Source: Naegleria gruberi (lineage: Eukaryota). From it: 64,000 nt of DNA. Position numbers and translations under genes: made by a program. The notes under the pieces were generated by a model. That model was not told the DNA's origin. It saw only the letters and a list, made by a program, of their open reading frames with translations, and ran no database searches. Shown here piece by piece: positions 3,458 through 37,693 of this stretch; the first letter of the stretch is position 1, and the number at the start of each line of letters is the position of its first letter. The stretch is from NCBI GenBank assembly GCA_000004985.1, contig GG738896.1, one strand, 5' to 3'.

Positions 3458-3505
3458 AAATTAAGTAACAAACCATAAGAAATGGTTAGTTAAGGAAGAA
3501 TATGA

Positions 3506-5325: not shown

Positions 5326-5949
5326 TTGATGAATGGAAAAATGAAAAAATTACAATCATTGAAAGCACCCACTTGTTCATTCAACAAGACTAAAAATTGC
5401 CTACACTCAAAATTTATCTTCAATTCCAAGATTAATCAAAGTTTTGAATTTTCCATCCCGAAGAATTTTAATCAAATTTTAAATTTTCATCAAACAAGCC
5501 TTCGTCAATTTTCTCATCATTCAATTAATTATATTAATAATAATAACAATACAAAGGAAGAAAGAACGATGGAAGAATTATTAAAAACATTTACCAATGG
5601 AATTATTTCGAAAAAGCAATTGAAAGAATTAATTGAATCGTCATCACCATCTTCTGTAAAATATTTTCTATTTGATGTTAGAAGTGAACAGGAAGCTAAT
5701 GGAATATTTCATCCAATATTACCAACTGCTGTAAATATTCCGATTTATCATTTGGAACCAATTTTTGAAATGGATGATGAGGATTTTAAGAGTCAACTCG
5801 GAATTGAAAAACCAAAATCTGATGATTTAATTATTGTCTATTGTGAGCATGGTATTAGAAGTGCAATGGCACAACAAGTATTAATAGAAGAGTATGGATA
5901 TTCAAATGTTATTAATTATAGAGGATCTGCTCATGATTGGTACTCTTAA
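5326..5949 (+). CDS. rhodanese-domain protein (sulfurtransferase-like) with a presequence-like N-terminus
   Basis: 207-aa ORF. Active-site loop CEHGIRS (Cx2GxR) within the rhodanese fold pattern FLFDVRSEQE...IIVYC. Confidence 0.65.
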   Translation: MMNGKMKKLQSLKAPTCSFNKTKNCLHSKFIFNSKINQSFEFSIPKNFNQILNFHQTSLRQFSHHSINYINNNNNTKEERTMEELLKTFTNGIISKKQLKELIESSSPSSVKYFLFDVRSEQEANGIFHPILPTAVNIPIYHLEPIFEMDDEDFKSQLGIEKPKSDDLIIVYCEHGIRSAMAQQVLIEEYGYSNVINYRGSAHDWYS

Positions 5950-19603: not shown

Positions 19604-19819
19604 ATGTCATCGTTATTTGAGGGCTTTCTCCTCAACAACACAACAAGGAGGAAACTGTTGTCATCAACAACATCTCTTCTCTTCTTCCTACTCTTGTGCA
19701 TTACATTCTTCTTTTCAACAACGTGCCTTGTTGATGGTGAAAGAATAGATTTTTTTCCATCTACTATAGTAAGCTATGGTGACCAATCTTTTTGCTCTTC
19801 CATGTCCAGTAATTCCTAT
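19604..19819 (+). CDS. putative exon 1 (signal-peptide exon) of the giant receptor gene
   Basis: ATG at 19604. Encodes MSSLFEGFLLNNTTRRKLLSSTTSLLFFLLLCITFFFSTTCLVDGE.... Ends at a perfect GTAAGT donor at 19820. A phase-0 acceptor (TATAG at 20010..20014) re-enters the long ORF frame, which is open from 20015. Confidence 0.45.
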
Positions 19820-20014
19820 GTAAGTTTTAAAGAAGGATTTTCTTGTTATTAATCGGACTTTATGGTTTTTCCCTCCAAAATTTATGATTGTCTTGACAAT
19901 GAATTTGAAAAAATGTGTTGATATTAATTTTATTTGGCTTGCTATCATTGGATTTTCTCTGATCATGTGAACAATATGATGATAAATAATAATATTACTT
20001 TCGGAATGGTATAG

Positions 20015-23000
20015 AAATCATTTAAAAATCCAGTTTCATATCCAACACCTGGATGGCAATTATTATATTTCCAAGGATTTAATTGCCCAAAGAATGGAGT
20101 TCCTGAAGGAATTAGTGATCGTAGTTATGGACAATTGCGTGTTGGATATAATCACATTATTGCTTTTCAAGTGAAAAGTAATAATGGAACACAAAAATTA
20201 AATATTGTAGGAAAAGGTGATAATACAGTTGGTCAATTAGCTATTGATAGATATATTTCTGGTGGAGTCAGATATTTTGCCAATATTACATTTGAAATTA
20301 ACTGGGGAGAGATGGTTAGATTAGTACAAATTGAAGATTTAATAACATCAAGAACTATTGCAAATAATCAAGATGTTGCTAAACTTCAAACTTATGATGC
20401 TTGGGATTCTAATCTTTATTTTGATAATATTAAGGGACACTATTTCCCTGATAATATTATTATTCAAGATATTAATACTTGTTATTTAAATACTTTTATA
20501 ATTTTAAAGAATCAAGAAATTTATGGAACTGGTTCAAATATTTACAAAAGTTTAAGTTTATCAAACGAAAATAGCAAAAGTAACTCTCCTATAAGATTAA
20601 CAATTTTGGAAAATTTTTTAAAATCACAAAGTGATTGGATTGATCAACTTTATTGTGGTTATTCATCTGTTTTTATTAAAACAAAAGCTAATAGAATTAT
20701 TGTATTTGGTAGAAATGATGTAAATCAATTAGGTCTTGGATCTGAATTTAGAGCAAATTCAATTACTCCAACAATTCATCCATTTTTAACATATTATTCA
20801 CAAAATATTGCAAATCTTGATACTATTTCATTTGGTTTAAATTTTACTTTAATTTCATTCAAAGATGGTTCAGTTTATTGTGCTGGTTTAAATAATCACC
20901 ATCAATGTGGTCTTGGTATTAATGAATATACAATTTCAAATTTTGTTCAAGTACCAATACCAGAAAAGATTACAAAAATATCAACAACAGCATATGCATC
21001 ATTTTTTGGTATTGAAACTGGTGAAATATTATCTTCAGGATGGAATTTAGGTTTTATTTTAGGACAAAATATTACTGATGAAAATTATGTTTCATCTACT
21101 CCAGTTAAAATTGAAAATTTAATTTCTCCAAATGATTATCAACTTTCAAAAGGTTTTCAATTATTTCATATAACTTATCAAAATGCAACATCAACTATGG
21201 CATGGGGATCAAATCAATTTTATAGTTCTGGTATACTTTATCAGGGTACTGGAACAGCTGCTTATCCAACTATTTTAGCATTGGGCAATGTGGAACGTGC
21301 TGTTTTAGAATCTATTGCAAATCCATCTGAATGTATTTTAGTTGGTGGTCATGCTGCTGCTAATGGTTGTTCCAATAGTTTATTACAAAGAATTAATTTA
21401 AAAACAGGATTTAATACTACATTTGGTGAATTTCGTTCATATTGCAGTAATTTTGGTACTTTTAATTATTCTACAGAAGTTTGTTCATGTGATGAAAAAC
21501 ATTATGGATATTCATGTCATTTAATCAAACCAGAATTTTTAGGAAATTGTAACCAATCAAGTTTAGAAAATTTTGCTATTGCTCCAAATACATGTTATTG
21601 TGGTGGAGAAGGTTTTTATGGAACATCTTGTGAAAATAAGGCACCTCCTAGATCTGTTTACAGTTTTACTAGATCTTTAAATATTCAAAAATTTACTCTA
21701 AAAAATAAGATGTTTGATTTTGGTTATTTAATAAGTGGTCAATCACATACATTTTTAAAATCTCAATTGAATAATAATAGAGTTTATGTATTTGGTAATG
21801 GATTGAATACAAATGATAAATATGGAATTGGTTTGGCTAGTAATAATATGATAAGTGATACTATTCAAATTTCAACATTATTTGAAAGATTATCAAAGAA
21901 ATTAACTTCTTCAATAAGAAATATTTATCCAATGAAAATTCAATCAGTTGCATTATTTAGTAATGGAGATATTTATAAGACTTTAAATAATTCAGATTTT
22001 GAAATTATTGCAAGTAATGTTAAATATTTAACATGTTCAGATATTACATGTTTTTTTATTACTAATGATAAGAATGTTTATGGTATTTTTGATAATCAAT
22101 ATAATCAACTTGGTTTAACTGATTTTGCAACAAGACAAAAAGTTTATGAATCTCAACCTGTTTTAGTATCACTTTTAAATAATAATTATCATAAGGAGAT
22201 TGTTAATATTTATCCTTCAAATTATTTTACATTATTTGTTAATCAATTTGGTAATTTATTTGGTATTGGTAAAAATACAGAATATCAATTAGGTATTGGA
22301 CATAATTTAAATATTGATAAGTTTATTATTCCATTAATAATTGAAAAACCTGTTTCACATGTTATTGTTACAGAATCTATTACATATTTTAAAGAATTAA
22401 ATTCTGTTTGGAAAACAATGGGTAAAGATATTTTAAATATTGCTCCAATTTCTCAATATTTAATTTATCCAACAGTAATAACATCTTTACAAGAACAAGA
22501 AAATATTTATAGAGCTAAAGGTGATATTATTATTACTCAAACAACAACTAAATTTAGACAATTAACACTTAATCAAGACCTTTCATATGGTCAAGAAAAA
22601 ATTATTGATGTTAATATTATGGGAGATGATATTATTTTAGTTACAATTCCAAGTAATTTTAATTCTATACTTTGTTATAATGGTTATTTAGATATTACTG
22701 GTACTTCATGCATTTGTGATAAAGGTTTTAGAGGAATTGATTGTAATTCTTATTTATGTGATAGAGTAACATGTAATTCATGTATTGGACCAAATATATG
22801 TTCTAAAAATCAATCTACAACAACAAATGAATTGAGATTATTCTCAAAAAATTATGGAATGATACAATCAAAGTTTAATGTTAAACATCATACTATTGGT
22901 GATAATTTTGCTATATTTATAGATTATGATGGTGAAACTAAATTTATTGGTGATAATTTTTATGGTGAATTAGGAATGGGTGGTTATTCTTCAATTAGTA

Positions 23001-26000
23001 TTAGTACCTCAAATTTACAACTTTTAACAAATAATATTTTACTTTTACCAATTTATTTAGCTAATGAAAATGTTAAATCAATTACATCTGGCAATAATTT
23101 TATTATTGTTTTAACAGAATCAGGTAATTTATTCTCTGTTGGTGATAATAGATTTGGTCAATTAGGTCAAAATGATACTATTAGTAGATATTTTTTAACT
23201 AAAATAGAAAGTACAATAACTTTTACAAGTGTAACTTGTAATTCTTTTCATTGTATTGCCTTAGGATCAAACAACAAATATTATGGTTGGGGAGATAACA
23301 CATTTGGTCAATTATGTTTAGATTCAACAACTAAAAAGGTTGTTTACACACCTTCACAAATTATATTTGATGTTATTATAGATGTTGTATCTACTTCAAT
23401 TATGTCAATTGGTCAAAACTCTTCAATATTTTATAGTAATAGTGGAGATGTGATTGCTTGTGGTAAAATAACAGTACCATCAAATTATGCTGATAAATCA
23501 GTAAGACAAAGAGTTTTACCAAATTTCAATATTGATTTACAAGCTATGGAACAAATACCAAGAAAATTCTATACCGATTTATGTTTAAAAAATTCTAATG
23601 AAGAATATTACTGTTTAGGTGAAAACAAATTTGGTACTCTAGGTTTTGGTCATGCTTTACCTCTTTATGGAATTTTTTTATCAAAACATTTTGGTGTTGA
23701 TGGAGGATTATTTTTCCATACTCACACTAATAAGATTAATTTCTATTATTCTAAAAACAAAATTTTAAATTATTTTGGTAATGGTGATTTATTGAATGAT
23801 ATCAACAATATGAATCCAGCAAGACAAACAAATGTTTTTCAATCAATTGGTAAATTTAGTTTCATAACATCAAATGAGAAATTTGGTTATATAATTACAA
23901 ATACTAGCAATTGTTTTAATAGAGGATATTTTTCTAATGGAATTTGTACTTGTAATAATATTAAATATTTAGGTGATGAATGTCAAACAAATACTAACAT
24001 TCCACAAGGTACAACTTCTCAATTCCAAATAATTGATACTTTAGGTAATAATTTTAATTTTACTAATAAGTTTGGAAGTATGTCAAAAATTGAAACATTT
24101 GGTAATTTACCATTTGGTTTTAATAATACTAGAAATAATTTAAGAGTTGTTAGTACCTTTAATTTGGCATTAAATCAATCCACTTCTCAACTTGCACTCA
24201 TTTTTGCTATTGATAATTATGCTAATTTAAACGTTGACATTCAATTTCCAAATAGTGGGAAAATTAGTAAACTTCAAACAAGATTGGAGGAAGGATCTGA
24301 TTACATTTATCATACAATTACTACTGATAATATAGATACTAATGCAATTATTCAAGTAACATATACAACAAATAATTCAGTAATTTTAGATAGTGATATG
24401 AAGAACCAATTTCTTAAAGTTTATACAAGAAATGAAAAAAATAATATTATTCCTATTGGATTGAAATCTAGCTCTGAATTATTATCTGAAGTACTTGCAA
24501 GGTTGAATTTCCTTTTTTCTATTAATGGTCCACATACTGCAGAAATTTCCTCTATTGAAGAATTTCCATGTGATCTAGATGGTAATAATAATGTGATAGG
24601 TCTCAGATTAGATGGAAATTTTTTCAATTATACATTTTATCCAATTCTAAAAGATGAATCTTTCCGTACTTTAAAGAACTTTTACAGCTCAAAAATTTCA
24701 TCAATTAGATATCCTATTCATGAAACATTTAATTTTGCAGAAAGTGATATTAGTCTCATTAATTTATCTAATAATAATAATCTTGAACAATCTGCAGGTT
24801 ATTATGATTTATCACCAGTTAAAAGAACAAATATTTTAATTAATGTTTCAAAATCAAAGATTTGTGATATTCCATTTGCTGATTTATTTATTAATCCTTC
24901 TAAATATAATTTTACAAATACTAATATGTATTGTATGAAACCAATTTTTGATAATTCTTGGTGTAAACCATTAAGTTTTAGAGAAAGTACTTTATACTTG
25001 ACTCAATTTTTTGTTTCTACAAAATTAAGTATTCCACTTGCACTTTGTGACTCATGTTCTATTTTAAATTGTTTTGATTTTTTAACTCAAAATACTTCTA
25101 GATTATCCTATTATTTTGTTTACCCAGATAATAATAAGATTATTTCTAATAATTTTAATATATTTGAAACAAGAAAGGATGTAAATGTTGATTTATTATT
25201 CAATGAATTTAATGAAAATAATTTCCTTAATTTTGATTATATTAATATGGGTATTATTTATAAATATGATTCTCCTATTGGAATACAAGAATTAAAAGGA
25301 ACTATCAAATTACAATATTTGAAATATTTACAAAGTTTCAATTTTACACCTATTGTACTTGCTAGAAATAGTGATAATATTGTTACAATTAAAAGTGAAA
25401 ATATGAAAGATTTCATAAAATATAATCAAGTTTATTGTAAAACAAGAATTAGTGAAGAAATAATTACTTTGGATGACAATGATAAATCAACTTCCTATTG
25501 TAATATTAGAACTGGTATTGAATATAATCAAAATATAACAGTTCAATTAATGGCTTACCCTATATCAGGAAATAATCCTTTTAAAATTGGAGAATTTAAT
25601 GTTTATGTTTTAAATATAACACTTATTCCAAATATTATCAATAAGTATTCTACAAAATATCCACAATTAATATTTATTAATTCTGATTTTACAACAGGAA
25701 GCTTTTTATCAAATTCTAAATTAGAATTTATGGAAAATGGTGAAACTGTTTATAAGATTGATCAACTAAAAATTAGTTATTTCAATACTTTATCCATTAC
25801 TGCAGATATTTATAAACAAAATCTTGACATGTATTTAGATAATGTAAATTTAGGATATTTTACTTCTCAAATTGTTTATAAACAAGTCAATTTAGAAAAA
25901 ATTATTCCATCCTTAAGTTTTAATACTGAAGAGATGCCTACAATTTATTTAGATAGAGAAATTTATTCAAATATTCATTCAAATATTCAGTATAGATGTT

Positions 26001-29000
26001 TAGATACTTTAACAAATACTTCATATTCTGCTCAATACTTAAATTCTAGAATAATATGTAATATTAATAATTTACCTACAAATAATGTAAAATTATTAGA
26101 TTTAATTGTTCAAATAAGAATTTATTCATTTAATGATAATGAATGGTTTACATATAGTAGTAATAGTGTTAAGTTTTATCATTTAATTTCTAATATGAAT
26201 ATTTCTTTAGCAGAAGGATCACAAACCTTTTCAAAATGTCATTATTTATCTTCTAGTACAACAGGTTTCACTCCAAGAATTAAATTAAATGAAATTGTTT
26301 TACCTGAAAGTGAAACTTATAGATTTTCAATATGCCATTATAATAGGTTAAATGAAATTGTTACCTATAGATCTAATTATTATAGAGATAATTTATTTGA
26401 AGCATCAGGATTTACTTTATATCTTAAAAGTGGTTATTCTAATATTTATTTATGTGCTGACTCAATGATTGTATCAAAACCAGTTGTAGTTTTTGTTATT
26501 AATCAAACAGATTATGATTCCAAACCAATTTTTGGTTTTATTGGTTCTGATATTTGGTCTGGTTATATTTTCCATCATCAACCACTTTATTCTGATTCTC
26601 TCTTCAATTTAACCTATTCTTGTGCCTTATTTGGTGATGTTCAAAATTATACTGTTTATTCAACAGATTTAATTACAAACAAAATTGATAATTATTATGT
26701 AACAAGATGTATTTTCACTGGTTTAAATAATATTATCAAACAAGAGGCAGGTTTTTATTTTTCATTACTTGCAAAGAGAGGATCAGAAACTGTTCAATTA
26801 CCAGCTACTTTTATTAATTTCATTTATGGACCAAAACCTACAAATTATTCTACTCCATTTATTTCTCATATTCCATATTCTGGTTATATTTCAACAACTT
26901 TATTAACACAAGATCAGGATAGAGATTTATTTGTTTCTAAAAATCAAAATGGATTTTTTAGATTAACTCTCCCAATTGATTGTTTGTTATTTAAAGTTGG
27001 TGGTACTTATCCTATTGCATCTGCACCACTTGATACAACATCATCAACTCTAAAATGTGATTTAACTAAATATACAGTTACAAGCAGTGAACCATTCGAA
27101 ATATCATTAGGTTCACTTGTTACAGAATATTCTTATTTTGTAGAATTTACATCAAGAACTGTACATTTCACATATTTGAATAAGATAGAATTTAACTTTG
27201 AAGGCTATCCAATTTTAGAAACTGGAAAATCTATTCTTCTAAATTATTATACTAACAAACTTCCTCAATACAAACAAACCCAATTGAATGTTACTATGTC
27301 TGCATTAGGACAATACCCCATTATCAAGTCATGTGATTTTGAACTTACAGGATCTTGTATAGTAGATTATAATTTAACAATTCCAATTACTCCAGTTTTA
27401 CAAACTTACATACTTCAATTTTCATTTATTATTAATGAATTTTTATTGAAACAAACATTGAACATTGAAAATACATTGTTCAATAACAGATTTAATGTAA
27501 TGTACTATTCACCATTCCTCTTTGATTTTAAAACTGATTCAAGCATTTACAATTTCAAGTTACAAATTGATAATGGATTAAATCCTGATTTCAATTTTGA
27601 TCTTGATACTGATGGTATTAGAAGAAGCATTTTTTATGGTTTGAATAATGATAGTATAACAGAAGTTACTTGCTCTAGAATTAGTAATTATAGTACTAGT
27701 ATAGCATCTAATTTAGAAACAAGAATTGTATCAACATTTAAAGGAATTACATTTTCTGTTGATAAGAAACCATCAACTATTTACCTTAGAGAACTTTACA
27801 CTACACCAAATATTGTCTCTCAATCAATTCAAAAAACTATTAATATTACTCTTACTACAGATATTGCTATTCAAAAACCTCTAAAGAAGTATTATATTTC
27901 TTTATTAGATAATAAGTATGAATGTAGTATTGAATCAACATCTTTGATTTGTCCTGTTTTAATTACATATATTGGTAATCCTTTCTACAAGGAAGTTCTT
28001 AAAATTTTAGATGGTGATAATGTTGTAACAAGGATTGGTTTACCATTTATCCTATTCAAACCAATTTCTATTCGTGAAGTTAAACCAACACTTCTACTTC
28101 AAGATAATAACTCTGTTAATACTACAGTTTTAATGGAGCAAACAGTTTTTGAAGATTTAGGAACAGAATTTATATTTTCTTGTTCCATCGAAGATGGTAA
28201 CTTCTCAGCTATTGTTGGTGATTCTAACTCTGTTAGATGTAATTTCAATAACTTGAATACTGGAAGAAAGAGTGTAAAAATTTATCTTTCCTCTAATAAT
28301 CAATACAGATCCATCAAGGAATTATTATTAACTGATATTAATCCAGCAAAAGATTTTGAAGTTATTAAGAATCCAACCATAGCTCTTGATAATTCTATTG
28401 AGCAAAAAACTTTATTCTATACTTCTGAAACCTTTTCATTAACAACTCTTAATATTCTAGTTACAAATACTGAATTCACTTTGAATAATATCTTGTATAA
28501 CATTTCTACTGAAATTGGTTTTTATGGAAAAAACAGCTTTGTTGAAAGTACTACTTATTTGGGAAAATTTGATACATCATACAAATTCCAAGTATCATTT
28601 TATGCTTCAAATAACTATGAAGGATTTGTTCCTCTGAGATTAACAAAAGTTTTATCAGGAACTACTAAAGAATCTAGAGCTCTTACTTCTGATGATTACA
28701 TTTTAACAAAGATATCTGATTTGGTTCTAACTTGTGTAACAAAGGTAACTTTATCAAAGAGTGTTCCAGCATTTGGTGTTGAATCTAATTTACCAAGATT
28801 AGTTCAATTATATTCAAACTTTAACTTTTTAAAATTTATTCCTGATTCTAATCTTTTACAAGATGGAAAGGTTAATTTTAAGTGTGTTTATGAATATTTA
28901 CCAAAATCTAATAAGGCAATTAGTAGCACTACTAGAATTTATAATAACGAAGCATTCGAATGTAATATGACAACACCAGATGTTGGTCAAGTTCAAATTG

Positions 29001-32000
29001 ATCTTTATGTTGAAAAAGATGGACATTCATTATCTCTTAATATTAATTCATGGAATTATATTATTTATGATGGTTTATTCTTACAACCTTCTTATGGTTT
29101 GAGAACTATTGAAAATTCAAGACTGGTAAATCCGTTCAAGATTCAAAAATACTCTGATTTGTCTGGTATTAACTTGAATCAATTTACAAAGTTTAATGGT
29201 AAAATTACTGAACCTGATGTTTCCTTTACTTGTGAAAAGGAATTAAGTTCAGATGGTATCTATCCATTATTGAACTGTACTATTCCTGTTTTACCATCTA
29301 CAAATATTATGTCTTTCAAACAGTATGAATTAAGACTTTACACAAATCCAAGTATGCAACTAATTTCAAATTTCTCACTAGGTTGGCTTCCAACAAGTTC
29401 TCTCTATATTAGTAATATTAATCCAAAAATTATTCAAAAATCTACTAGTAAGACTGATATGAAAACAATTTATGTAGATATCTCGGGAGATAGTAATGTT
29501 ATTTCAAGAACCTTACCTGAAGGTAACTTTGCTATTTATACAAGAAGTGCAGGTGTTGCCCTTTTACAATCTGCTAGACCACCTTATGTTGCTCAACCTG
29601 CATCTATTGCTATTCAAACTTCTAATTTTGAAGAAACTGTAACATTACAATATGTGAACTATAACTTACTTACACCTGTTATTGATATTCCAAAACCAGA
29701 CCTTGTCGATTTTATGAAACTCACTGTGAATGATGTTGAATTGAATAGTATTCAATATTCATCCGACAGTATTAAAGGTTCTAAGGCAAGTGGTGCAACT
29801 ATCTTTTTCACTGTAAGCAAGAATACTGCCACACTATTCATGTTAAATAATGGTGGTTATAATGGTTCTATCAAATGTGTTCAAGATCCAATCACTAGTA
29901 ATAGTGCAACATTTGTGTCTGAATCAACTGATACACTCAAGTTCAAATGCGTTTTAGCAAAGACAAGCTCAATTACAAATTCCTTTATTCTTTCTAAAGT
30001 TGAAATTTACTATAATAATCCAATGGCAGAGAATGGAAATATGAAGGTTTCATCTAGTGCTTTAGATTTTATTTGGTTACCTTCTACTTTACCAATAGAA
30101 CAACCTGTACCATTTGCATTTATCTCCAGAGTTGGTTCTTTTGATATTTCACTTTCAGATAAGAAGGTATTTATTTCCTCTGATAATTTTGTTTGTTATT
30201 TGGCTGATTCTACAAGTACCAATGTAGTGAAAATCAAAGCCATTTATAATCCATCAGGAACTCTCACATGTCCATTCAGTTTTAGCTATTCTATATCAAC
30301 AGTATTTAAAATTTCTATTTACTTTAGTAATGGTCCAAGTGATGTTCTTTTAACAACAACAAGAGATGTAACCTTTATCAATGCACCTTTGGAAATTTCA
30401 TACATTGACCCATTCATTACTTATCACTTACCAGCACTTACTGGTAGTACAACAGATATCAATTACAAGGTCAGCAAATTGAGTTTTATTCCTCAAGGTT
30501 TATCTTGTACTTTTAGAGAAGTTACATCAACAATACCAAGTATTGGTCAAGTTAGAAAAATAACACAAGCTCAAATTCAAGACGGTTTATTTGTTTGTCC
30601 TTTCTTGATTGATCAAACATTCTCATCTTATAATTTACTTACCAAATTAGTGATAGATTTAGGAAGTAATCTTTTAGACATTTCTAGCAATGAGCTTGAA
30701 TTGATTCTTTACAAAAAGAAGCTGACATGGAATATCAACTCATATTTGACAGCATCAAATTTGAATACTAGATATGAACTACGTAATTATGAAATTCCAC
30801 ATTCTTCAAGTTATAGTCTTCAACAATCTGTTGTTGCTACTCCTTATTTAAGATCTCAAAAAATACAAAACTTGAAAACAACAACATTAGATTGTATTGG
30901 AGCTGATCCAGCTAGTTGTACATTTGTTGGTATTGAACCAATGGTTAACAAAATACCTTCATACATGACCACTGCTATTGAATTTATCAATGTTGAAAAT
31001 CAAAGAAAATCTTACATTATTGCTAATGACTTGACATTGTTCCTTAAAAAGTCTTCATTCAATGTTTCTCATATTTCTCCATATATTGCAGACTACAGAC
31101 AAAGTCATGCATCTAATCAAAATTTCCTCTTTACCAGTGCTAGTTTAAATGCTGAGGACTTTGATATTACATGTCAATTCGATAACAAAAAGACAAATAT
31201 GACAAGAAATCAATTTTGTGTTGTTAAACCACCAACTTTACCAAATGGATACCCAAAAACTGGTATTCAAAATGTCACTTTAACTTGGAATGGTATTGAT
31301 TTATATTCTAGAAGTTATCCAATAGATTTCATAGAAGCCTATCAAGTTAATAATTTGATAACTTTTTATTCATATAGATCTAATATTACATTGATTGATA
31401 ATCCTTATGTTCCTCTACCTTTCAGTGGAGATTTTTCTGGCTATACTTTTTCAATTGGACTTTTTGAAAAGAATAGATTAATAGGTGAAGCAACTTGTAA
31501 ACAACTATTTGCTAATAATGCCCAATTAGAATGTGTAAAGGGACCTTTTAGTTATTCAACATCTTATCCAGTTACTTCTATTGTGAAATTATTGATTAAC
31601 GCTCAATCTGCTTTCCAGATGAAAGGAGAAATTGTGTTATATTCTGCTCCTACTATTCAAAGTCTCAGTACTAATTATTTCAGAATTAACCAAATTTATA
31701 CTATGGAAGTCTATGGATCTGTATTCTATCAAAAGGATACGCCAACCCTTGAAATATATTCCAATACTACTTTCAATTCATATCCTACCATGGTTGTTGA
31801 TTCCAATACTATTCGCATTCAAAACATTGGCTTCAATGACCTACAAGAAACTCTAAGAAAATCCAGATTGAAATTTAGTTCAGGTGCCTATTTAGATCTA
31901 CCAGATATTTCTATTTATAAAGGAGTGAAAGAAGATTTCTCGTTGCAATCCATCAATTCAGAAGCATATGATAATGGTGTTATTACAGCAACCACAACTA

Positions 32001-35000
32001 GATCCATTAGCATTGATCTTAAGCTCATCTCAAATACTTTCCAAAACAAACCTCAATCATGCTTGGTAAAGTATGAAGATGGTGTTTTGTCCATCGTTCA
32101 AACATGCTCTGTTACCTATGAAAGTGGTAGCGTTACCCCCGTAGTACACATAACAACTCCATTAATGTGGTATTATGACATTGTTTTCCCAAGAATAATC
32201 TCTTACTCATTCTCATTGGATGGAGGTGCTTTTTACTATACCCATGCAAATTTCAAAATTAAGATGGTGGACGATAGTGAGAATTTCATTATTCGAACTA
32301 TTTATGATCAAAATATTGTTACATTTTCCAATGTTCCTTATTCTATTTTATCTGGTGTCTCACTTTCCTTCATCAAAATTGGAACAAATGGTACAAATTT
32401 GCAAGAACTTGTTTTTACAAAATCTTGTAAAGCAAGCTATTGTAATCTTGATTATGGGCATATAATATTTGAAAATTTAAGACCATTTGAATACTTTGAA
32501 TTTGATCGTATTAGAATCAACAAGGGAGCTTCTAGTAAGATCTTTGCAATTTCAAAGAACCTTCTTATTTTCAATCCTAATAATACTTTATCCTCAATTC
32601 CTTCCGTTTCAATTTCACATTCCAAAGTTCAATTAGGAGCTAAAACAAGTGTAACAATAATTCTTCCAGCTAGTTTTAGTAGTGATCTTTCCAAGATTAG
32701 CACTGTTACTGTGATTTTCAAAGCTGATGGTTCTACCAGTACCCCTTCAACCATATCCAAAGGTTGGACCTCAAAATATTCCTTCATTATTGAAATGGAT
32801 TCTCTACCACCGTGGGATTTGCAAATAGCTGCTATTGCTTTCCAAAATATTAATATTAACGTTATTGCCTCTCCAACAATTACTTTAATCCCTTCATTTG
32901 ACTTTTCTATTATTAATCAGTACCAAAAAGCCAAAGCATCTACAAGATCACAAACTAATCTCAGAGTTACATTTAATAGTGCAATTACTACTCAACAAGG
33001 AATAATTCCTTCAATGAAAATTTCTAATTCAAACACTAATTTATTCAAGTCCTACACTACAAATATTCAAATTGATGGAAATACCAGAACAACAAATGCT
33101 GTACAATTTACTGAATTGACAGTGACAGCTCCAGCAGCTTCATCAATTCTTACTGTTGATAAATCCCTGGTTAGATTCCCTACAAAATTTAGTATTGGCT
33201 TTGCATTCCTGGAAAACCAATATGTTATGAAGGAAATCCTTACCTATGATGATTCTATTGCTGATCCTCCAATTATAGTTAGTGTAAATCCACAGGAAGT
33301 TCCTCTAATTGATCAACCAGTTACTTTGGATATCAAAGCTTCTTCAATAGACTCACAGTCAACTCAATGTATCTTTAGGGCTAGCAAGGCATCCAGTGTT
33401 AATAACACAATAATTGTAAATGCCAATTTCATTGATCAGTATTCCATTGGTTGTACATTTGTTCCTTCTCAAATTGTTACCGAATTGGGTATTTCTAGTA
33501 CTTTAGAAATGGACATGACATTGAGATCTAATTTGGATGAAAGCAAAGAAGTTATCAATATTCCAATCTACAGACAACTTAATATTGATTCTTTCACACC
33601 TAAACAAGGTATTACAACAGGTGAATTTGAAACCACATTCATTGGAAGCTTCCCTATTCATCCTAGAGAAGAGTACTTTTTAACTCAGGGAAGAATGAAA
33701 TTCAGAGCCAAGTTCGGTATCAGAGAATCAACTGACTGCTCAAGAATAAGCTCAACAACTGTAAAATGCAAAGGTGTTAGTAACCCTATCTCTGAAGTAG
33801 ATATTTCCCTATCCAGAAATTCTGTTGATTTTGTGAAAGCATCTGAAAAGTTTGTTTATTATGGATGTGGACCTGGATATGAACAATCTAGTTTCAATGA
33901 ACTTTGTAAACCATGTAAGATTGGTTATTCAAAGAACTTTACTGGTGGTCCTTGTGTTGCATGTGATAGAGGTTACTATGCAAGTCAACCAGGTTCTTTA
34001 GAATGCACTAAATGTCCTTCCTTGCAAACTACATTAGATACTGGCTCTACAAGCATTGACTATTGTGGATGTCCTTCACAAACATATTATTATAATATTT
34101 ACAAGAATTCCTGTGTAACATGTCCAAAAGGTGCTGATTGTCCATCATTTAATACTACTTACCCTATTGCCAAGACTGGTTACTGGCATTCAAATGCAAC
34201 TGGTTATAGTCCTTACAATTTCTATGAGTGCATTCCTTCAACTTCTTGTAATGCAGGTTTGTTTGGAAACTGCACCGATGGTTATACTGGTTTCGTTTGT
34301 GGTTTGTGTGAAGATGGTTTTTATAGAAGTTCCAGATCATGTAGTAGATGTTCAAATCTTGCTCCTCTCTATTTGACACTTTTGATAGGTGGTGTAGCTG
34401 TTATTGCATTGATATTCTTCTTCTTTTCATCAATCAAGGTGCATCACATTTCATCATTGAGTATTGCACTCTTCTTCTTCCAAGTGAATAGTATGTGGAC
34501 AAAGTTTGATTTGAACCTTCCAGAAGAAATCTCTGGACTTTTCACTGCAAGTTCTGCAAGTACTTTCAACTTTGATTTTATTCAGTTCCAATGTGTTTTT
34601 CCAATTGGTTTTGTACCTCAATGGATTTTGAAAATGTTAATTCCTGTAATGCTTTTAATCTTATTCGTAGTGTTGTATTTAATGGGCGAATTGAGAAATA
34701 TTATTGCCAAGTTTGCTGGACCTAAAATTCCATGGAAGAAGTGGGATATTACCGATTTGTACAATGAGTTTATCAAGAGACAAGAAATTGAATCAGATCC
34801 AAAGCTCACTAAGATGCAAAAGTTAAAACATTCTCTCACTGGTATAATGTTCTCAGCTAGAACTGCAATCTACAAATCCCAACACAAAATTATTTGGACT
34901 CTCACCACCTATTTACCAAGAAGTGAGATGAAGAAGTTTTTGAATAATTGTATTCACTCATTCATTACTTTCCTTTCATTGGCCTACATGTATATTATTC

Positions 35001-36013
35001 AAACAAGTGCTGATATTTTCTTGTGTAAGGATCAAGCGGATGGTTCAAAGAACTTGGAACAAGCTCCACACATTACTTGTTTTGAAGGTACATGGTGGGT
35101 AATGTTCCCATTCTCAGTAATTTACTTTATCTTGTTTGGATTGGGAGCAGCTGCATTCTTCCTCTACTCTGCTATCAGATATAGAAAAGTCAAACTTACA
35201 GAAGAACATGCTTTCATTCAGAGATTCAAATTCCTATTTGTCAAATTCAAGCCAAGATATTTCTATTATGAAAGTGTTATTACCATTAGAAAGTTGGTCT
35301 TTTCAGTTCTCTACGTCTTTTTAGCTCCACTTCAAGTAATTGCTTTAGGATTTGTTTTGATTTTCCTTTCATTTGTCATTCACTTACAATTAGTTCCATA
35401 TTCAAAGAAGATGCACAACCTCATTGAATATGTAACCCTAGTTGCCACCCTCCTGACATTATTTACTGGTTTAATTTTCTTCTACGATGTTGAATCCTTG
35501 GTCGGTTTATTGTGGATTAGAACTCTTGCGCTTGTATTGACAATAATCATTTTCGTTCTCACTGCAGCTGTTCTCGTATTGGCTGTCTTGTGGGATATCA
35601 GAACTAGAAAGAGAAAAGAAGCCAAAAAGATTAAGGAAAAATTGGAAGAAATTAAAAATTCCATCAGTAATGGAACTACAGACAAGTCTGATGATAAGGT
35701 GAAGGAAACAATTGTCTTTGGTTTGGACATTGATGAATTTGATGATGATCCAGCTGGAGATAGCTCTCTCAATAGCAAACATGAAACCATTAATGATGTC
35801 TTCTCCAATCTATTCTCCCTCGAAAGAAGAAAGAAGAAAACAGACAAGATTAAACAAAAGGGAGCCAAGATCAAGTCAAAGATTACCAACAAGACCAAAT
35901 CAACATCAGAAAAGACAAATGGTGATGATAGTTTCGATTATTCTGATCAAACTCTATCCACCAACACTACCTCTGGTGACACTAAACAAACTTCCTCACA
36001 ACTTTTCCAATAA
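20015..36013 (+). CDS. giant (>5,300 aa) multi-pass membrane receptor: RCC1-like propeller, EGF-like modules, huge N/S/T-rich ectodomain, ephrin-receptor-like Cys-rich module, about 7-8 TM helices and a charged cytoplasmic tail
   Basis: Single uninterrupted reading frame of about 16 kb. The 'M' at 20135 in the ORF track is a TTG, and the frame is open back to 20015. N-terminal RCC1 blades (GRNDVNQLGLG, GWGDNTFGQLC, GDNRFGQLGQ). EGF-like patterns (CSCDEKHYGYSCH, CICDKGFRGIDCNSYLCD). C-terminal CKPCKIGYSKNFTGGPCVACDRGYYASQPGSLECTKCP (ephrin-receptor-like / GCC2_GCC3 pattern) at about 33.9-34.3 kb. Hydrophobic helices follow from about 34.36 to 35.6 kb, then a K/E/S-rich tail. Confidence 0.85.
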   Translation, partial: KSFKNPVSYPTPGWQLLYFQGFNCPKNGVPEGISDRSYGQLRVGYNHIIAFQVKSNNGTQKLNIVGKGDNTVGQLAIDRYISGGVRYFANITFEINWGEMVRLVQIEDLITSRTIANNQDVAKLQTYDAWDSNLYFDNIKGHYFPDNIIIQDINTCYLNTFIILKNQEIYGTGSNIYKSLSLSNENSKSNSPIRLTILENFLKSQSDWIDQLYCGYSSVFIKTKANRIIVFGRNDVNQLGLGSEFRANSITPTIHPFLTYYSQNIANLDTISFGLNFTLISFKDGSVYCAGLNNHHQCGLGINEYTISNFVQVPIPEKITKISTTAYASFFGIETGEILSSGWNLGFILGQNITDENYVSSTPVKIENLISPNDYQLSKGFQLFHITYQNATSTMAWGSNQFYSSGILYQGTGTAAYPTILALGNVERAVLESIANPSECILVGGHAAANGCSNSLLQRINLKTGFNTTFGEFRSYCSNFGTFNYSTEVCSCDEKHYGYSCHLIKPEFLGNCNQSSLENFAIAPNTCYCGGEGFYGTSCENKAPPRSVYSFTRSLNIQKFTLKNKMFDFGYLISGQSHTFLKSQLNNNRVYVFGNGLNTNDKYGIGLASNNMISDTIQISTLFERLSKKLTSSIRNIYPMKIQSVALFSNGDIYKTLNNSDFEIIASNVKYLTCSDITCFFITNDKNVYGIFDNQYNQLGLTDFATRQKVYESQPVLVSLLNNNYHKEIVNIYPSNYFTLFVNQFGNLFGIGKNTEYQLGIGHNLNIDKFIIPLIIEKPVSHVIVTESITYFKELNSVWKTMGKDILNIAPISQYLIYPTVITSLQEQENIYRAKGDIIITQTTTKFRQLTLNQDLSYGQEKIIDVNIMGDDIILVTIPSNFNSILCYNGYLDITGTSCICDKGFRGIDCNSYLCDRVTCNSCIGPNICSKNQSTTTNELRLFSKNYGMIQSKFNVKHHTIGDNFAIFIDYDGETKFIGDNFYGELGMGGYSSISISTSNLQLLTNNILLLPIYLANENVKSITSGNNFIIVLTESGNLFSVGDNRFGQLGQNDTISRYFLTKIESTITFTSVTCNSFHCIALGSNNKYYGWGDNTFGQLCLDSTTKKVVYTPSQIIFDVIIDVVSTSIMSIGQNSSIFYSNSGDVIACGKITVPSNYADKSVRQRVLPNFNIDLQAMEQIPRKFYTDLCLKNSNEEYYCLGENKFGTLGFGHALPLYGIFLSKHFGVDGGLFFHTHTNKINFYYSKNKILNYFGNGDLLNDINNMNPARQTNVFQSIGKFSFITSNEKFGYIITNTSNCFNRGYFSNGICTCNNIKYLGDECQTNTNIPQGTTSQFQIIDTLGNNFNFTNKFGSMSKIETFGNLPFGFNNTRNNLRVVSTFNLALNQSTSQLALIFAIDNYANLNVDIQFPNSGKISKLQTRLEEGSDYIYHTITTDNIDTNAIIQVTYTTNNSVILDSDMKNQFLKVYTRNEKNNIIPIGLKSSSELLSEVLARLNFLFSINGPHTAEISSIEEFPCDLDGNNNVIGLRLDGNFFNYTFYPILKDESFRTLKNFYSSKISSIRYPIHETFNFAESDISLINLSNNNNLEQSAGYYDLSPVKRTNILINVSKSKICDIPFADLFINPSKYNFTNTNMYCMKPIFDNSWCKPLSFRESTLYLTQFFVSTKLSIPLALCDSCSILNCFDFLTQNTSRLSYYFVYPDNNKIISNNFNIFETRKDVNVDLLFNEFNENNFLNFDYINMGIIYKYDSPIGIQELKGTIKLQYLKYLQSFNFTPIVLARNSDNIVTIKSENMKDFIKYNQVYCKTRISEEIITLDDNDKSTSYCNIRTGIEYNQNITVQLMAYPISGNNPFKIGEFNVYVLNITLIPNIINKYSTKYPQLIFINSDFTTGSFLSNSKLEFMENGETVYKIDQLKISYFNTLSITADIYKQNLDMYLDNVNLGYFTSQIVYKQVNLEKIIPSLSFNTEEMPTIYLDREIYSNIHSNIQYRCLDTLTNTSYSAQYLNSRIICNINNLPTNNVKLLDLIVQIRIYSFNDNEWFTYSSNSVKFYHLISNMNISLAEGSQTFSKCHYLSSSTTGFTPRIKLNEIVLPESETYRFSICHYNRLNEIVTYRSNYYRDNLFEASGFTLYLKSGYSNIYLCADSMIVSKPVVVFVINQTDYDSKPIFGFIGSDIWSGYIFHHQPLYSDSLFNLTYSCALFGDVQNYTVYSTDLITNKIDNYYVTRCIFTGLNNIIKQEAGFYFSLLAKRGSETVQLPATFINFIYGPKPTNYSTPFISHIPYSGYISTTLLTQDQDRDLFVSKNQNGFFRLTLPIDCLLFKVGGTYPIASAPLDTTSSTLKCDLTKYTVTSSEPFEISLGSLVTEYSYFVEFTSRTVHFTYLNKIEFNFEGYPILETGKSILLNYYTNKLPQYKQTQLNVTMSALGQYPIIKSCDFELTGSCIVDYNLTIPITPVLQTYILQFSFIINEFLLKQTLNIENTLFNNRFNVMYYSPFLFDFKTDSSIYNFKLQIDNGLNPDFNFDLDTDGIRRSIFYGLNNDSITEVTCSRISNYSTSIASNLETRIVSTFKGITFSVDKKPSTIYLRELYTTPNIVSQSIQKTINITLTTDIAIQKPLKKYYISLLDNKYECSIESTSLICPVLITYIGNPFYKEVLKILDGDNVVTRIGLPFILFKPISIREVKPTLLLQDNNSVNTTVLMEQTVFEDLGTEFIFSCSIEDGNFSAIVGDSNSVRCNFNNLNTGRKSVKIYLSSNNQYRSIKELLLTDINPAKDFEVIKNPTIALDNSIEQKTLFYTSETFSLTTLNILVTNTEFTLNNILYNISTEIGFYGKNSFVESTTYLGKFDTSYKFQVSFYASNNYEGFVPLRLTKVLSGTTKESRALTSDDYILTKISDLVLTCVTKVTLSKSVPAFGVESNLPRLVQLYSNFNFLKFIPDSNLLQDGKVNFKCVYEYLPKSNKAISSTTRIYNNEAFECNMTTPDVGQVQIDLYVEKDGHSLSLNINSWNYIIYDGLFLQPSYGLRTIENSRLVNPFKIQKYSDLSGINLNQFTKFNGKITEPDVSFTCEKELSSDGIYPLLNCTIPVLPSTNIMSFKQYELRLYTNPSMQLISNFSLGWLPTSSLYISNINPKIIQKSTSKTDMKTIYVDISGDSNVISRTLPEGNFAIYTRSAGVALLQSARPPYVAQPASIAIQTSNFEETVTLQYVNYNLLTPVIDIPKPDLVDFMKLTVNDVELNSIQYSSDSIKGSKASGATIFFTVSKNTATLFMLNNGGYNGSIKCVQDPITSNSATFVSESTDTLKFKCVLAKTSSITNSFILSKVEIYYNNPMAENGNMKVSSSALDFIWLPSTLPIEQPVPFAFISRVGSFDISLSDKKVFISSDNFVCYLADSTSTNVVKIKAIYNPSGTLTCPFSFSYSISTVFKISIYFSNGPSDVLLTTTRDVTFINAPLEISYIDPFITYHLPALTGSTTDINYKVSKLSFIPQGLSCTFREVTSTIPSIGQVRKITQAQIQDGLFVCPFLIDQTFSSYNLLTKLVIDLGSNLLDISSNELELILYKKKLTWNINSYLTASNLNTRYELRNYEIPHSSSYSLQQSVVATPYLRSQKIQNLKTTTLDCIGADPASCTFVGIEPMVNKIPSYMTTAIEFINVENQRKSYIIANDLTLFLKKSSFNVSHISPYIADYRQSHASNQNFLFTSASLNAEDFDITCQFDNKKTNMTRNQFCVVKPPTLPNGYPKTGIQNVTLTWNGIDLYSRSYPIDFIEAYQVNNLITFYSYRSNITLIDNPYVPLPFSGDFSGYTFSIGLFEKNRLIGEATCKQLFANNAQLECVKGPFSYSTSYPVTSIVKLLINAQSAFQMKGEIVLYSAPTIQSLSTNYFRINQIYTMEVYGSVFYQKDTPTLEIYSNTTFNSYPTMVVDSNTIRIQNIGFNDLQETLRKSRLKFSSGAYLDLPDISIYKGVKEDFSLQSINSEAYDNGVITATTTRSISIDLKLISNTFQNKPQSCLVKYEDGVLSIVQTCSVTYESGSVTPVVHITTPLMWYYDIVFPRIISYSFSLDGGAFYYTHANFKIKMVDDSENFIIRTIYDQNIVTFSNVPYSILSGVSLSFIKIGTNGTNLQELVFTKSCKASYCNLDYGHIIFENLRPFEYFEFDRIRINKGASSKIFAISKNLLIFNPNNTLSSIPSVSISHSKVQLGAKTSVTIILPASFSSDLSKISTVTVIFKADGSTSTPSTISKGWTSKYSFIIEMDSLPPWDLQIAAIAFQNININVIASPTITLIPSFDFSIINQYQKAKASTRSQTNLRVTFNSAITTQQGIIPSMKISNSNTNLFKSYTTNIQIDGNTRTTNAVQFTELTVTAPAASSILTVDKSLVRFPTKFSIGFAFLENQYVMKEILTYDDSIADPPIIVSVNPQEVPLIDQPVTLDIKASSIDSQSTQCIFRASKASSVNNTIIVNANFIDQYSIGCTFVPSQIVTELGISSTLEMDMTLRSNLDESKEVINIPIYRQLNIDSFTPKQGITTGEFETTFIGSFPIHPREEYFLTQGRMKFRAKFGIRESTDCSRISSTTVKCKGVSNPISEVDISLSRNSVDFVKASEKFVYYGCGPGYEQSSFNELCKPCKIGYSKNFTGGPCVACDRGYYASQPGSLECTKCPSLQTTLDTGSTSIDYCGCPSQTYYYNIYKNSCVTCPKGADCPSFNTTYPIAKTGYWHSNATGYSPYNFYECIPSTSCNAGLFGNCTDGYTGFVCGLCEDGFYRSSRSCSRCSNLAPLYLTLLIGGVAVIALIFFFFSSIKVHHISSLSIALFFFQVNSMWTKFDLNLPEEISGLFTASSASTFNFDFIQFQCVFPIGFVPQWILKMLIPVMLLILFVVLYLMGELRNIIAKFAGPKIPWKKWDITDLYNEFIKRQEIESDPKLTKMQKLKHSLTGIMFSARTAIYKSQHKIIWTLTTYLPRSEMKKFLNNCIHSFITFLSLAYMYIIQTSADIFLCKDQADGSKNLEQAPHITCFEGTWWVMFPFSVIYFILFGLGAAAFFLYSAIRYRKVKLTEEHAFIQRFKFLFVKFKPRYFYYESVITIRKLVFSVLYVFLAPLQVIALGFVLIFLSFVIHLQLVPYSKKMHNLIEYVTLVATLLTLFTGLIFFYDVESLVGLLWIRTLALVLTIIIFVLTAAVLVLAVLWDIRTRKRKEAKKIKEKLEEIKNSISNGTTDKSDDKVKETIVFGLDIDEFDDDPAGDSSLNSKHETINDVFSNLFSLERRKKKTDKIKQKGAKIKSKITNKTKSTSEKTNGDDSFDYSDQTLSTNTTSGDTKQTSSQLFQ

Positions 36014-36091: not shown

Positions 36092-37693
36092 ATGAACTTT
36101 GAAAAAAAAATGTTTGACTTGTTTCGCTCCAAAAAGAAGGATGAACATGAAGAGAAATCCCTCTCCTTTCTCGTAATACCACATGGCAAGATTCATAATG
36201 ACTCATTCAAAATGTTGCCTATTGATATTGTGCTGGAAATTTTGGATTATATTTGTGGGGACGAGCAATTGATGATGAGCTTGACGAATTGTCATGATCA
36301 GGCGTTGAATAAGCAGATTCCTAGGGAGACTCCATTCAGAGAGAGGAAATGGACGCCTCCTGCATGGGATGTCAATTCCGATTTTAATGAATTAAAATTT
36401 GATGAGAAAAAGTTTTTCAAACAATACTTTGGAAAGTTCCCGAATAGAGATTCTAGTTGTCCAAGGCTGCTATTTAGAAAATTAGATTTGGGAGTGGATA
36501 GGTATTCTCCAAAAGAATTGTGTAGACTAATTCAAATTGTAAATTATGGAAATAAGCCAATTGTGATTGAGAAAACTTTAGCTCGTCAAATATTGCAGTG
36601 TATAAGAAGATTTGGACAAGTAAACGAGGATAAAGAAAAGGATATTGAAAAGAAAATGTTTAAATATTTGAGATATGTATTAAGGAATGGTCTGTGTGAG
36701 AGAGTTATTGGATTGGATATTGCTGGTATTGAAACATTTCCTTCTTTAATTAATGAGTTAGTACTAATGTGTCCGAATATAGAACATGTTAATCTTGGTT
36801 CGTATAACCAGAAGGAAAATTACCATGCAAAGCAAATTCTGATGAAAGATGTCAATGAGTCCATGATGATCTTGAAATTGTTAAAATCCTTTAGATGGAC
36901 TGGACATCATTTTGGTGAAGGTTTTATTGATGAGTTATCGAAACATACACCTCTATTGGAGAAGCTGGTTTTAAAATGTGAAACATCTGTTATATGTTGT
37001 CACGAAGCCATCCTAAATTGGAAGAATCTCAAACTAATTGTTTCAAAAATTAGTCCACATATTTATTCAAGAAATAATGGAACAGCAGAAGATCTATACA
37101 AGTTTTTCAAGAATATAAGTCAATTAGACAAGTTGGAAAAACTTGTTTTGAATGAAAACAATATTAAGGAAGGAAATATTCAATCATTACCTCATTCTCT
37201 GACATGTTTAGATTTGAGTAATACCCAGATTCCAGACAACTTTCTTCAAATTGTCGCATCCTTGCCCCAATTAAAGTCTCTGGGATTGAACTGTTATTAT
37301 GGAGGAAGGGATTCTTTGAAGCATCTCGTTGGATTGAAACACACTCTCGAAGAATTACACATAACCCAAAGTAGTAGTTGTGGAGATGAAGGTGTGATGT
37401 ATATTTCGCAAATCGAATCTCTAAAGAGACTATTTCTAATGAACCTAAGCCAAGATCAAATCAATGACACTGGAGGTTATGAGCTAGCCAAATTGAAAAA
37501 TTTGGAAATTGTTGGTCTTGAATATTGTTACATTTCACACAAAACAGTTAACAGTATTGCAGCAAGTTGTCCTAACATTAAGAAAATCCACATTGATGGA
37601 TGCCACAACATTAAGAAACACAAATTATCAAAGCAAGCCTTCTCTTTAATAGATGATGCATCTTATGCTGTTAGAATTTCAGAAGATCTATAA
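36092..37693 (+). CDS. F-box-like / leucine-rich-repeat protein
   Basis: 533-aa ORF with an F-box-like motif (LPIDIVLEILDYICGDEQL) and LRRs (LTCLDLSNTQIPDNFLQIVASLPQLKSLGL, LKNLEIVGLEYCYISH). Confidence 0.55.
   Translation: MNFEKKMFDLFRSKKKDEHEEKSLSFLVIPHGKIHNDSFKMLPIDIVLEILDYICGDEQLMMSLTNCHDQALNKQIPRETPFRERKWTPPAWDVNSDFNELKFDEKKFFKQYFGKFPNRDSSCPRLLFRKLDLGVDRYSPKELCRLIQIVNYGNKPIVIEKTLARQILQCIRRFGQVNEDKEKDIEKKMFKYLRYVLRNGLCERVIGLDIAGIETFPSLINELVLMCPNIEHVNLGSYNQKENYHAKQILMKDVNESMMILKLLKSFRWTGHHFGEGFIDELSKHTPLLEKLVLKCETSVICCHEAILNWKNLKLIVSKISPHIYSRNNGTAEDLYKFFKNISQLDKLEKLVLNENNIKEGNIQSLPHSLTCLDLSNTQIPDNFLQIVASLPQLKSLGLNCYYGGRDSLKHLVGLKHTLEELHITQSSSCGDEGVMYISQIESLKRLFLMNLSQDQINDTGGYELAKLKNLEIVGLEYCYISHKTVNSIAASCPNIKKIHIDGCHNIKKHKLSKQAFSLIDDASYAVRISEDL

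Follow-up and report, generated by a model that had tools for sequence, protein, structure and literature searches.

A giant Naegleria gruberi gene for a predicted surface protein with extracellular RCC1-like propellers and a membrane core of the cysteine repeat modular protein type

Gene structure and orthologues

A giant gene occupies positions 19604..36013 of the plus strand in a 64,000-nucleotide stretch of Naegleria gruberi DNA (contig GG738896.1; the whole stretch is referred to as the window), and its predicted product combines RCC1-like propellers, a very long stalk, and a multi-pass membrane core related to that of cysteine repeat modular proteins (CRMPs). The locus is one intact gene with a single intron and a product of ~5,404 residues. 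Exon 1 (19604..19819, +), opened by the ATG at 19604, comprises 72 codons that are open in frame and encodes a putative signal peptide with a hydrophobic core at residues 17–45 (Kyte–Doolittle 2.51). The intron (19820..20014, +) is 195 nt long, has the borders GTAAGT...TAG, and keeps the frame (phase 0). Exon 2 (20015..36013, +) stays open throughout, its 5,332 sense codons ending in a single terminal stop, compared with 328–702 stops in each of the remaining five frames over the same 16 kb; because the DNA of the gene is AT-rich (23–35% G+C), a chance origin of such a frame is ruled out. An earlier note on this DNA, made from its letters and reading frames, had proposed both the stop-free frame of ~16 kb and the signal-peptide exon joined to it through the 195-nt intron, and both proposals hold. 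No second copy of the gene was found within the window.

A protein that is 100% identical has already been deposited for N. gruberi NEG-M (XP_002672584.1 / EFC39840.1 / UniProt D2VTD0) as an uncharacterised "ATS1 domain-containing protein" of 5,338 residues, and a literature search by the accession numbers of the gene found no paper. The deposited model XP_002672584.1 contains the same 195-nt intron, but its start is placed at the internal ATG 19802 (MSSNSY...), 66 codons late, so that the hydrophobic N-terminus and signal peptide are missing. The start at 19604 is supported by the orthologues of Willaertia magna and N. lovaniensis, both of which begin with hydrophobic signal sequences that precede a conserved motif, NP..(Y/F)PTPGW..LY..G(F/Y).CP. 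In N. gruberi, this motif forms the first residues of exon 2, and an upstream exon is therefore needed. The present analysis corrects the deposited gene model in this respect.

Exon 2 is collinear with both orthologues. The W. magna orthologue (KAL9642939.1) is a single protein of 5,394 residues. The N. lovaniensis locus is syntenic, with ZZ/PB1, ATPase, and glucokinase genes downstream in conserved order, and where its coding sequence was compared with the N. gruberi protein (~3,400 residues, 2001–5379 of the spliced product), the two are collinear. The N. lovaniensis orthologue has been annotated as two genes, C9374_011772 (5,071 residues) and C9374_011771 (349 residues), a split caused by two gapless frame changes in the highly conserved membrane core (~9875–9905 and ~10600; PYSW02000050.1). 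This split, together with an abnormal G+C content at third codon positions (GC3) of 0.06–0.15 over two-thirds of the N. gruberi gene from its 5′ end, could suggest that the giant frame is an annotation or assembly artefact in which several genes have been fused into one reading, or that it is a decaying pseudogene. However, the frame changes are gapless, and the collinear sequence around them shares 81% identity with N. gruberi, so that they probably reflect indel errors or very recent lesions. A further argument against an artefact is provided by the homologues of Fabomonas and Mantamonas (2,100–4,060 residues), which derive from transcriptome assemblies, indicating that such proteins are expressed as long transcripts in other organisms. 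Together with the 5,332 stop-free codons in AT-rich DNA and the single-protein model of Willaertia, these observations make an artefact or pseudogene most improbable.

The membrane core and its relatives

Ahead of the membrane, the product contains a cysteine-rich Ephrin_rec_like (GCC2_GCC3-type) module at 33941..34066 (+; residues 4643–4684 of the exon 2 open reading frame (ORF), to which all module positions refer), which matches PF07699 with E 6.8e-10 (39 bits, cut-off 23.1) and confirms the pattern that had been noticed in this peptide. It is followed by a juxtamembrane cysteine knot of the CRMP type (34223..34351, +; ORF residues 4737–4779), which resembles DUF7630 (PF24633, E 3.1e-4, 21.3 bits), and by a predicted nine-helix membrane core, also of the CRMP type (34343..35611, +; ORF residues 4777–5199). 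The AlphaFold2 model of the core, calculated from a 22-sequence alignment, reaches a predicted local distance difference test (pLDDT) score of 86.1 and a predicted template modelling score (pTM) of 0.80, and contains nine membrane-length helices. The cluster of hydrophobic helices and the lysine-rich tail described in the earlier note are both present, but its estimate of 7–8 helices gives way to nine. An orientation with the N-terminus outside and the C-terminus inside is predicted because it places the K/R-rich loops and the basic tail inside the cell, in keeping with the positive-inside rule.

In the core, a WP motif and a Cys mark a conserved extracellular loop, a two-Cys β-hairpin lies between helices 4 and 5, and an amphipathic RFKFLFVKFKP segment comes after helix 5. 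Several polar or charged residues within helices or at their ends are conserved in the family (34337..35614): helix 2 contains a Q, helix 6 begins with WE...RK, helix 7 is followed by H...P(Y/F), and helix 8 is preceded by HN..E. These residues could belong to a functional pathway or to a dimer interface. The Lys/Ser/Thr-rich cytoplasmic tail of 133 residues (35612..36010, +) is predicted to be disordered and basic. Within its otherwise low-complexity sequence lies the motif INDVFSNLFSLERRKKK (35789..35839), whose pattern, (I/M)N(D/Q/E)(V/I)xSNLFS(L/F)xR+KK, is common to N. lovaniensis and three environmental relatives and may represent a sorting or binding motif.

An exhaustive HMMER scan of the core profile against 1.84 billion protein cluster representatives yielded 2,363 representatives at E ≤ 1e-3, 358 at E ≤ 1e-10, and 45 at E ≤ 1e-30, whereas word-indexed protein searches with the C-terminal module, the 22-sequence profile, and the stalk gave only 1–3 proteins. 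The named members belong to Naegleria, Willaertia, Anaeramoeba, Thecamonas, Fabomonas, Mantamonas, and environmental assemblies, and N. gruberi itself has giant paralogues with the same core, one of them of 4,488 residues; XP_002670576.1 is among the N. gruberi paralogues. The module sits at the C-terminal end in the full-length relatives listed, and many of the shorter matches are fragments. The heads vary among members, with EGF, RCC1-like, PA14, and LRR modules combined in one and Laminin_G_3 or pentraxin-like modules in others, while Ephrin_rec_like, DUF7630, and TIG recur beside the membrane across the family. The extracellular Cys, the WP, and the intramembrane polar motifs are invariant in the family, whose clusters number at least 2,363 and span several eukaryotic supergroups.

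CRMPs have been described as apicomplexan- or alveolate-specific regulators of the rhoptry exocytosis that is triggered by host contact. They occur in Apicomplexa and ciliates as giant multi-pass proteins that carry ephrin-receptor-like/EGF-like repeats, are essential for the exocytosis of rhoptries and mucocysts upon contact, and have been proposed to act as surface contact sensors (PMC9670195, PMC9815656). Nine transmembrane helices have been reported for them (PMC9670195, PMC9815656), and in Toxoplasma the deletion of the CRMP transmembrane helices abolishes function. With core sequences of TgCRMPA/B and PbCRMP1/2 taken from S2 Table of PMC9815656, the family profile scored 87.1 bits against the core of TgCRMPA (E 6e-24), with positions 2–382 of 395 aligned. 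The alignment of the family with the CRMPA clade by hhalign reached 99.2% (E 2.5e-19, 364 aligned columns), and controls with reversed or column-shuffled alignments stayed at or below 0.3%. DUF7630, the Pfam model of the CRMP juxtamembrane knot, matched TgCRMPA at 64.6 bits. The N. gruberi sequence alone gave a marginal match to TgCRMPB (27.3 bits, E 9.5e-6). On the evidence of these profile comparisons, the knot and the nine-helix core are homologous to the conserved CRMP core of Apicomplexa and ciliates. The earlier note had recognised no described family in this architecture, a view that is revised here for the C-terminal core, which is of the CRMP type and, at a greater distance, related to PF06011.

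The Naegleria protein shares with the CRMPs (Plasmodium CRMP1–4, Toxoplasma CRMPA/CRMPB, and Tetrahymena CRMP1/2) a giant modular ectodomain with the N-terminus outside, ephrin-receptor-like/EGF-like cysteine repeats, the DUF7630 knot, the homologous nine-helix core, and a cytoplasmic tail. It differs from them in lineage, belonging to the Heterolobosea (Discoba) and not to the Alveolata, in its head, which carries three RCC1-like propellers in place of Kringle/MAR/lectin modules, and in its stalk, which at ~3,200 residues is much longer.

The large modular ectodomain, the multi-pass C-terminus, and the cytoplasmic tail had been read in the earlier note as an ectodomain of the adhesion G-protein-coupled receptor (GPCR) kind joined to a heptahelical module, a reading that would imply G-protein signalling. 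Labels point in the same direction: the CRMPs are labelled "G protein-coupled receptor-related" by PANTHER (PMC9670195), Anaeramoeba members of the family bear the same label, and the analogy of a long adhesive ectodomain on a multi-pass module has been used in the CRMP literature (PMC9670195). Sparvoli et al., however, while loosely likening CRMPs to adhesion GPCRs, stated that they are not bona fide GPCRs (PMC9670195). In the Naegleria protein, the confident model has nine helices and not seven, no Pfam match to 7tm, GPS, or GAIN was found at E ≤ 0.1–1, and 7tm_3 appeared in one relative at E 0.3 only. A Foldseek search of the core model against the PDB returned GPCRs with template modelling scores of 0.12–0.23 (probability ≤ 0.14, E ≥ 0.7), with no match to these or to any other solved fold. 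A GPCR-type receptor is thus very unlikely, and the C-terminal module belongs in essence to a known family other than GPCRs, an outcome that the earlier note had named beforehand as speaking against its proposal.

The extracellular head and stalk

Behind the signal peptide, Pfam matches to WD40_RLD (283.8 bits in total), RCC1 (114.5 bits), and RCC1_2 (86.9 bits) are spread across three separate regions, each of which is followed by a short cluster of 4–8 Cys with weak matches to teneurin-type EGF modules. The first RCC1-like β-propeller (20132..21364, +; ORF residues ~40–450, with approximate boundaries) matches WD40_RLD at E 2.6e-43 and RCC1 at E 1.2e-13, and precedes an EGF-like cysteine knot with 8 Cys (21443..21631, +; ORF residues 477–539) that is recognised by its Cys positions and a weak EGF_TEN match. 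The second RCC1-like region (21692..22654, +; ORF residues ~560–880; WD40_RLD E 7.9e-15, RCC1 E 4.1e-9) is detected by Pfam only at ORF residues 667–776 and shows internal BLAST similarity to the third; its knot, again with 8 Cys (22673..22801, +; ORF residues 887–929), is recognised by its Cys positions and a weak EGF_Teneurin match. The third propeller (22862..23884, +; ORF residues ~950–1290) matches WD40_RLD at E 4.7e-34 and RCC1_2 at E 4.4e-19, and is followed by a third EGF-like knot (23912..23983, +; ORF residues 1300–1323; EGF_TEN E 1.4e-5). An extracellular setting of the RCC1-like propellers is supported by their position behind a signal peptide and by the flanking disulfide-type EGF and ephrin-receptor-like modules. 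The secreted context and the EGF-like modules agree with what the earlier note had proposed, but its single RCC1 propeller is replaced by three RCC1-like regions. The locus would provide a clear eukaryotic example of RCC1-like propellers with an extracellular use.

Between the head and the membrane-proximal modules lies a fast-evolving stalk of ~3,070 residues (24032..33244, +), in which no Pfam match was found at E ≤ 0.1 (residues ~1340–4410). Its Cys residues occur in pairs that recur every ~100–120 residues. A TIG-type profile was built by iteration over the family, with the last unit ahead of the cysteine-rich region as its starting point. It matched this last unit with E 2.1e-16 and its predecessor with E 1.1e-3, defining two membrane-proximal IPT/TIG-type units at 33245..33892 (+; ORF residues 4411–4507 and 4513–4626). 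The same profile gave ten further weak, non-overlapping matches of ~100–115 residues in the stalk (E 0.2–11) and many significant tandem units in the paralogues. Pfam TIG itself reached a best E of 0.68 on the N. gruberi protein, while the equivalent membrane-proximal unit of relatives matches it at values down to E 4.5e-8. When the stalk units were compared by hhalign, the last unit scored 95.8% and all others ≤ 13%; no internal stalk repeats were found at E < 0.1 by hhalign self-comparison, and tiled BLAST gave RCC1 blades only.

For the 926 stalk residues closest to the membrane, the AlphaFold2 model, calculated from a three-sequence alignment, is almost purely β and of low confidence (pLDDT 42). 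Foldseek with this low-confidence model gave 47 matches at E ≤ 1e-3, all of them tandem Ig/FnIII/IPT ectodomains, including those of plexins A1/A2/A4/C1, gp130, the leptin receptor, and fibronectin. From these weak profile and model signals, it is a reasonable inference, not a demonstration, that the stalk consists of ~30 very divergent Ig-like (IPT/TIG-like) β-sandwich units. A long uncharacterised stretch had been described at this position in the earlier note; it exists, but its length is ~3,200 and not ~4,000 residues. The N-x-S/T sequons of the ectodomain (20150..34550), described there as dense, number 56 against 79 ± 7.6 in residue shuffles; they are significantly depleted, that is, rarer than the composition predicts.

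The very long stalk of β-sandwich-like units, the varying heads of the paralogues, and the fast evolution of the ectodomain would also suit a structural adhesin or glycocalyx fibre, in which the function resides in the ectodomain, with the multi-pass region serving only as an anchor or trafficking device. However, one helix would be enough for anchoring, and the nine-helix core is the best conserved part of the protein: among the orthologues, the membrane core is 61–81% identical and the ectodomain 21–58%, which marks the core as the constrained part. The invariance of the core motifs across the family and the loss of Toxoplasma CRMP function upon removal of the transmembrane helices likewise argue against a mere anchor, and a fibre of this kind is unlikely.

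Possible mode of action and surroundings of the gene

Beyond the CRMPs, the core leads to the fungal Flc/Pkd2 "TRP-like" domain PF06011; no other transmembrane Pfam family recurs among the members of the core family. The consensus of 86 family cores scored 46.2 bits against PF06011 (E 3.8e-12, with a cut-off of 28.5 bits), and no other Pfam family was significant. Individual members match as well, with 7 of 22 at E ≤ 1 in one set and 15 of 65 at E ≤ 0.01 in another (best 3.6e-10), and two relatives (P0040 and P0048) reach 27.8 and 28.2 bits in the same register, in which profile positions ~233–420 fall onto helices 5–9 and the RFxFL..WE..RK motif. The N. lovaniensis fragment, named "TRP C-terminal domain-containing" in UniRef, scores 11.8 bits. 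At E ≤ 1, no PF06011 match was found on the N. gruberi module, which therefore misses the 28.5-bit Pfam threshold, or on the TgCRMPA/B cores. At the level of the family, and judged from these profile matches, the core is more distantly related to PF06011.

The Flc/Pkd2 proteins (S. cerevisiae Flc1–3, S. pombe Pkd2, Trp663, and Trp1322) share with the Naegleria protein a signal peptide, an extracellular domain, a nine-helix domain of ~400 residues, a disordered tail, and the motif RFxFL..(Y/F)WE..RK after helix 5; in S. pombe Pkd2, the nine-helix domain measures ~405 residues in the AlphaFold model. The Naegleria protein differs from them in that its ectodomain is ~30 times larger and that it has no ML-like TRP_N domain (PF14558; none in the Pfam scans). 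In S. pombe Pkd2, Ca2+ permeability is activated by membrane stretch (PMC9727806). The core may thus be a divergent Flc/Pkd2-type domain that conducts or controls Ca2+ and is gated by tension or ligand on the ectodomain, a logic that has its likeness in polycystin-1/polycystin-2 or in fission-yeast Pkd2 and that would refine, without contradicting, the mechanism of a contact sensor. The family-level PF06011 match with its consistent register, the UniRef label, and the shared layout and stretch-activated Ca2+ permeability of Pkd2 speak for such a receptor-channel. On the other side stand the missing PF06011 matches of the N. gruberi protein and the TgCRMPA/B cores, the restriction of good alignment to the C-terminal half of the PF06011 profile, a core model unlike canonical six-helix TRP or Kv folds, and the activity of PF06011 proteins, which is itself debated between flavin carrier, Ca2+ homeostasis, and channel (PMC9600462). 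A receptor-channel is a possibility to be held tentatively.

Two further candidates for a channel fold were considered and rejected. A match to the Shaker Kv profile (E 1e-3) proved, on reading of the alignment, to be hydrophobic and low-complexity noise, and a canonical TRP or voltage-gated-like fold with six helices (S1–S6) and a pore loop is not matched by the core model.

A broader version of the receptor-channel proposal, in which the CRMP core is a divergent branch of PF06011 and its giant-ectodomain versions are ancient, eukaryote-wide receptor-channels that are gated by contact or tension and conduct or control Ca2+, is likewise tentative. Among the best 10 of 154 papers in a literature search, none joined CRMPs with TRP-like, PF06011, Flc1, or polycystin. 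If true, the proposal would provide a direct physical link from surface touch to Ca2+-triggered secretion or engulfment, and would replace the "GPCR-like" label of the CRMPs. The signal of the core could be ionic, as in Pkd2, or conformational through the tail; an ionic signal seems doubtful at present. The tie of the family consensus to the Flc/Pkd2 domain makes ion flux a testable alternative to the GPCR analogy. The CRMP–PF06011 link and a channel function, if confirmed, would raise the interest of the locus.

A resemblance in the possible mode of action also extends to polycystin-1 (PKD1) and fibrocystin (PKHD1), both putative sensors of contact or force, in which a membrane module bears a huge ectodomain of tandem Ig-like (PKD or IPT/TIG) units. 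The 11 helices of PKD1 are accompanied by a GAIN/GPS site and end in six transmembrane helices of the TRP fold, and fibrocystin has one helix. No homology of the Naegleria membrane part to PKD1 or fibrocystin was found, and the core model matches neither fold.

The intact gene, the predicted topology, the family, the homology of the core, and the pattern of constraint together make it probable that the N. gruberi protein is a contact or adhesion sensor of the CRMP type outside the Alveolata, with a new head architecture. The gene sequence itself has already been deposited; new here are a CRMP-type protein in Heterolobosea, its head of RCC1 propellers, and its exceptionally long stalk. The role of cell-surface sensor or adhesion receptor suggested in the earlier note remains plausible. 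The signal peptide is predicted to direct the N-terminus out of the cell. The distal head consists of three RCC1-like β-propellers, each capped by an EGF-like knot, and would be carried on a stalk of ~30 divergent Ig/IPT-like units, which could measure of the order of 100 nm if extended. The C-terminal end is formed by the ephrin-receptor-like module, the DUF7630 cysteine knot, the predicted nine-helix core, and the basic cytoplasmic tail. Prey, substrate, another cell, or a similar external surface may be bound by the fast-evolving head and stalk, or may pull on them, and the conserved core may convert this contact into a local membrane response, possibly in a pair with the core of a paralogue, the arrangement predicted for TgCRMPA/B. 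A parallel would be found in alveolates, where CRMPs license rhoptry and mucocyst exocytosis on contact.

Several points weigh against the reading as a CRMP-type sensor. The hidden Markov model of the CRMPA clade, built from three sequences, matches 113 of 156 family proteins but gives no direct match to the N. gruberi protein, whose CRMP link therefore runs through the family profile and intermediates. The DUF7630 match falls under the 27-bit Pfam cut-off, the helix count of nine and the orientation are predictions, the domain identity of the stalk depends on weak profile matches and a low-confidence model, and the function, expression, and localisation of the N. gruberi gene rest on sequence and prediction. 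In addition, no rhoptry-, mucocyst-, or trichocyst-like organelle is known in Naegleria, so that the downstream response of alveolates is not simply transferable.

According to the family scan, the core is present in Heterolobosea, apusomonads, ancyromonads, Mantamonas, and Anaeramoeba, and is therefore older than the parasites. If the sensor reading is correct, the family of contact sensors extends far beyond the parasites of malaria and toxoplasmosis (Toxoplasma), whose CRMPs are needed for invasion, and the core probably serves general surface sensing in crawling bacterivores. As a free-living and culturable organism, N. gruberi is a possible system for studying this core.

Three observations concern the DNA of the gene and its neighbours. 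GC3 climbs steadily along the giant gene (20015..36010), from 0.06–0.07 in the first ~1,200 codons to 0.36–0.37 in the last ~530; 21 other long ORFs in the window have a GC3 of 0.21–0.36, and in the N. lovaniensis orthologue the gradient is absent (0.24–0.36). Downstream, an ORF for a leucine-rich repeat (LRR) protein of 533 residues (36092..37693, +) separates the giant gene from the ZZ/PB1 gene; no counterpart was found at the syntenic position of N. lovaniensis, where tblastx gave no match and the intergenic gap is ~150 bp. Upstream, the divergent neighbour (17657..19057, −) encodes a free-standing RCC1-like domain protein of 466 residues (WD40_RLD E 8.5e-56), which is no obvious recent donor because its identity to the propellers of the giant protein is ~24–29%.

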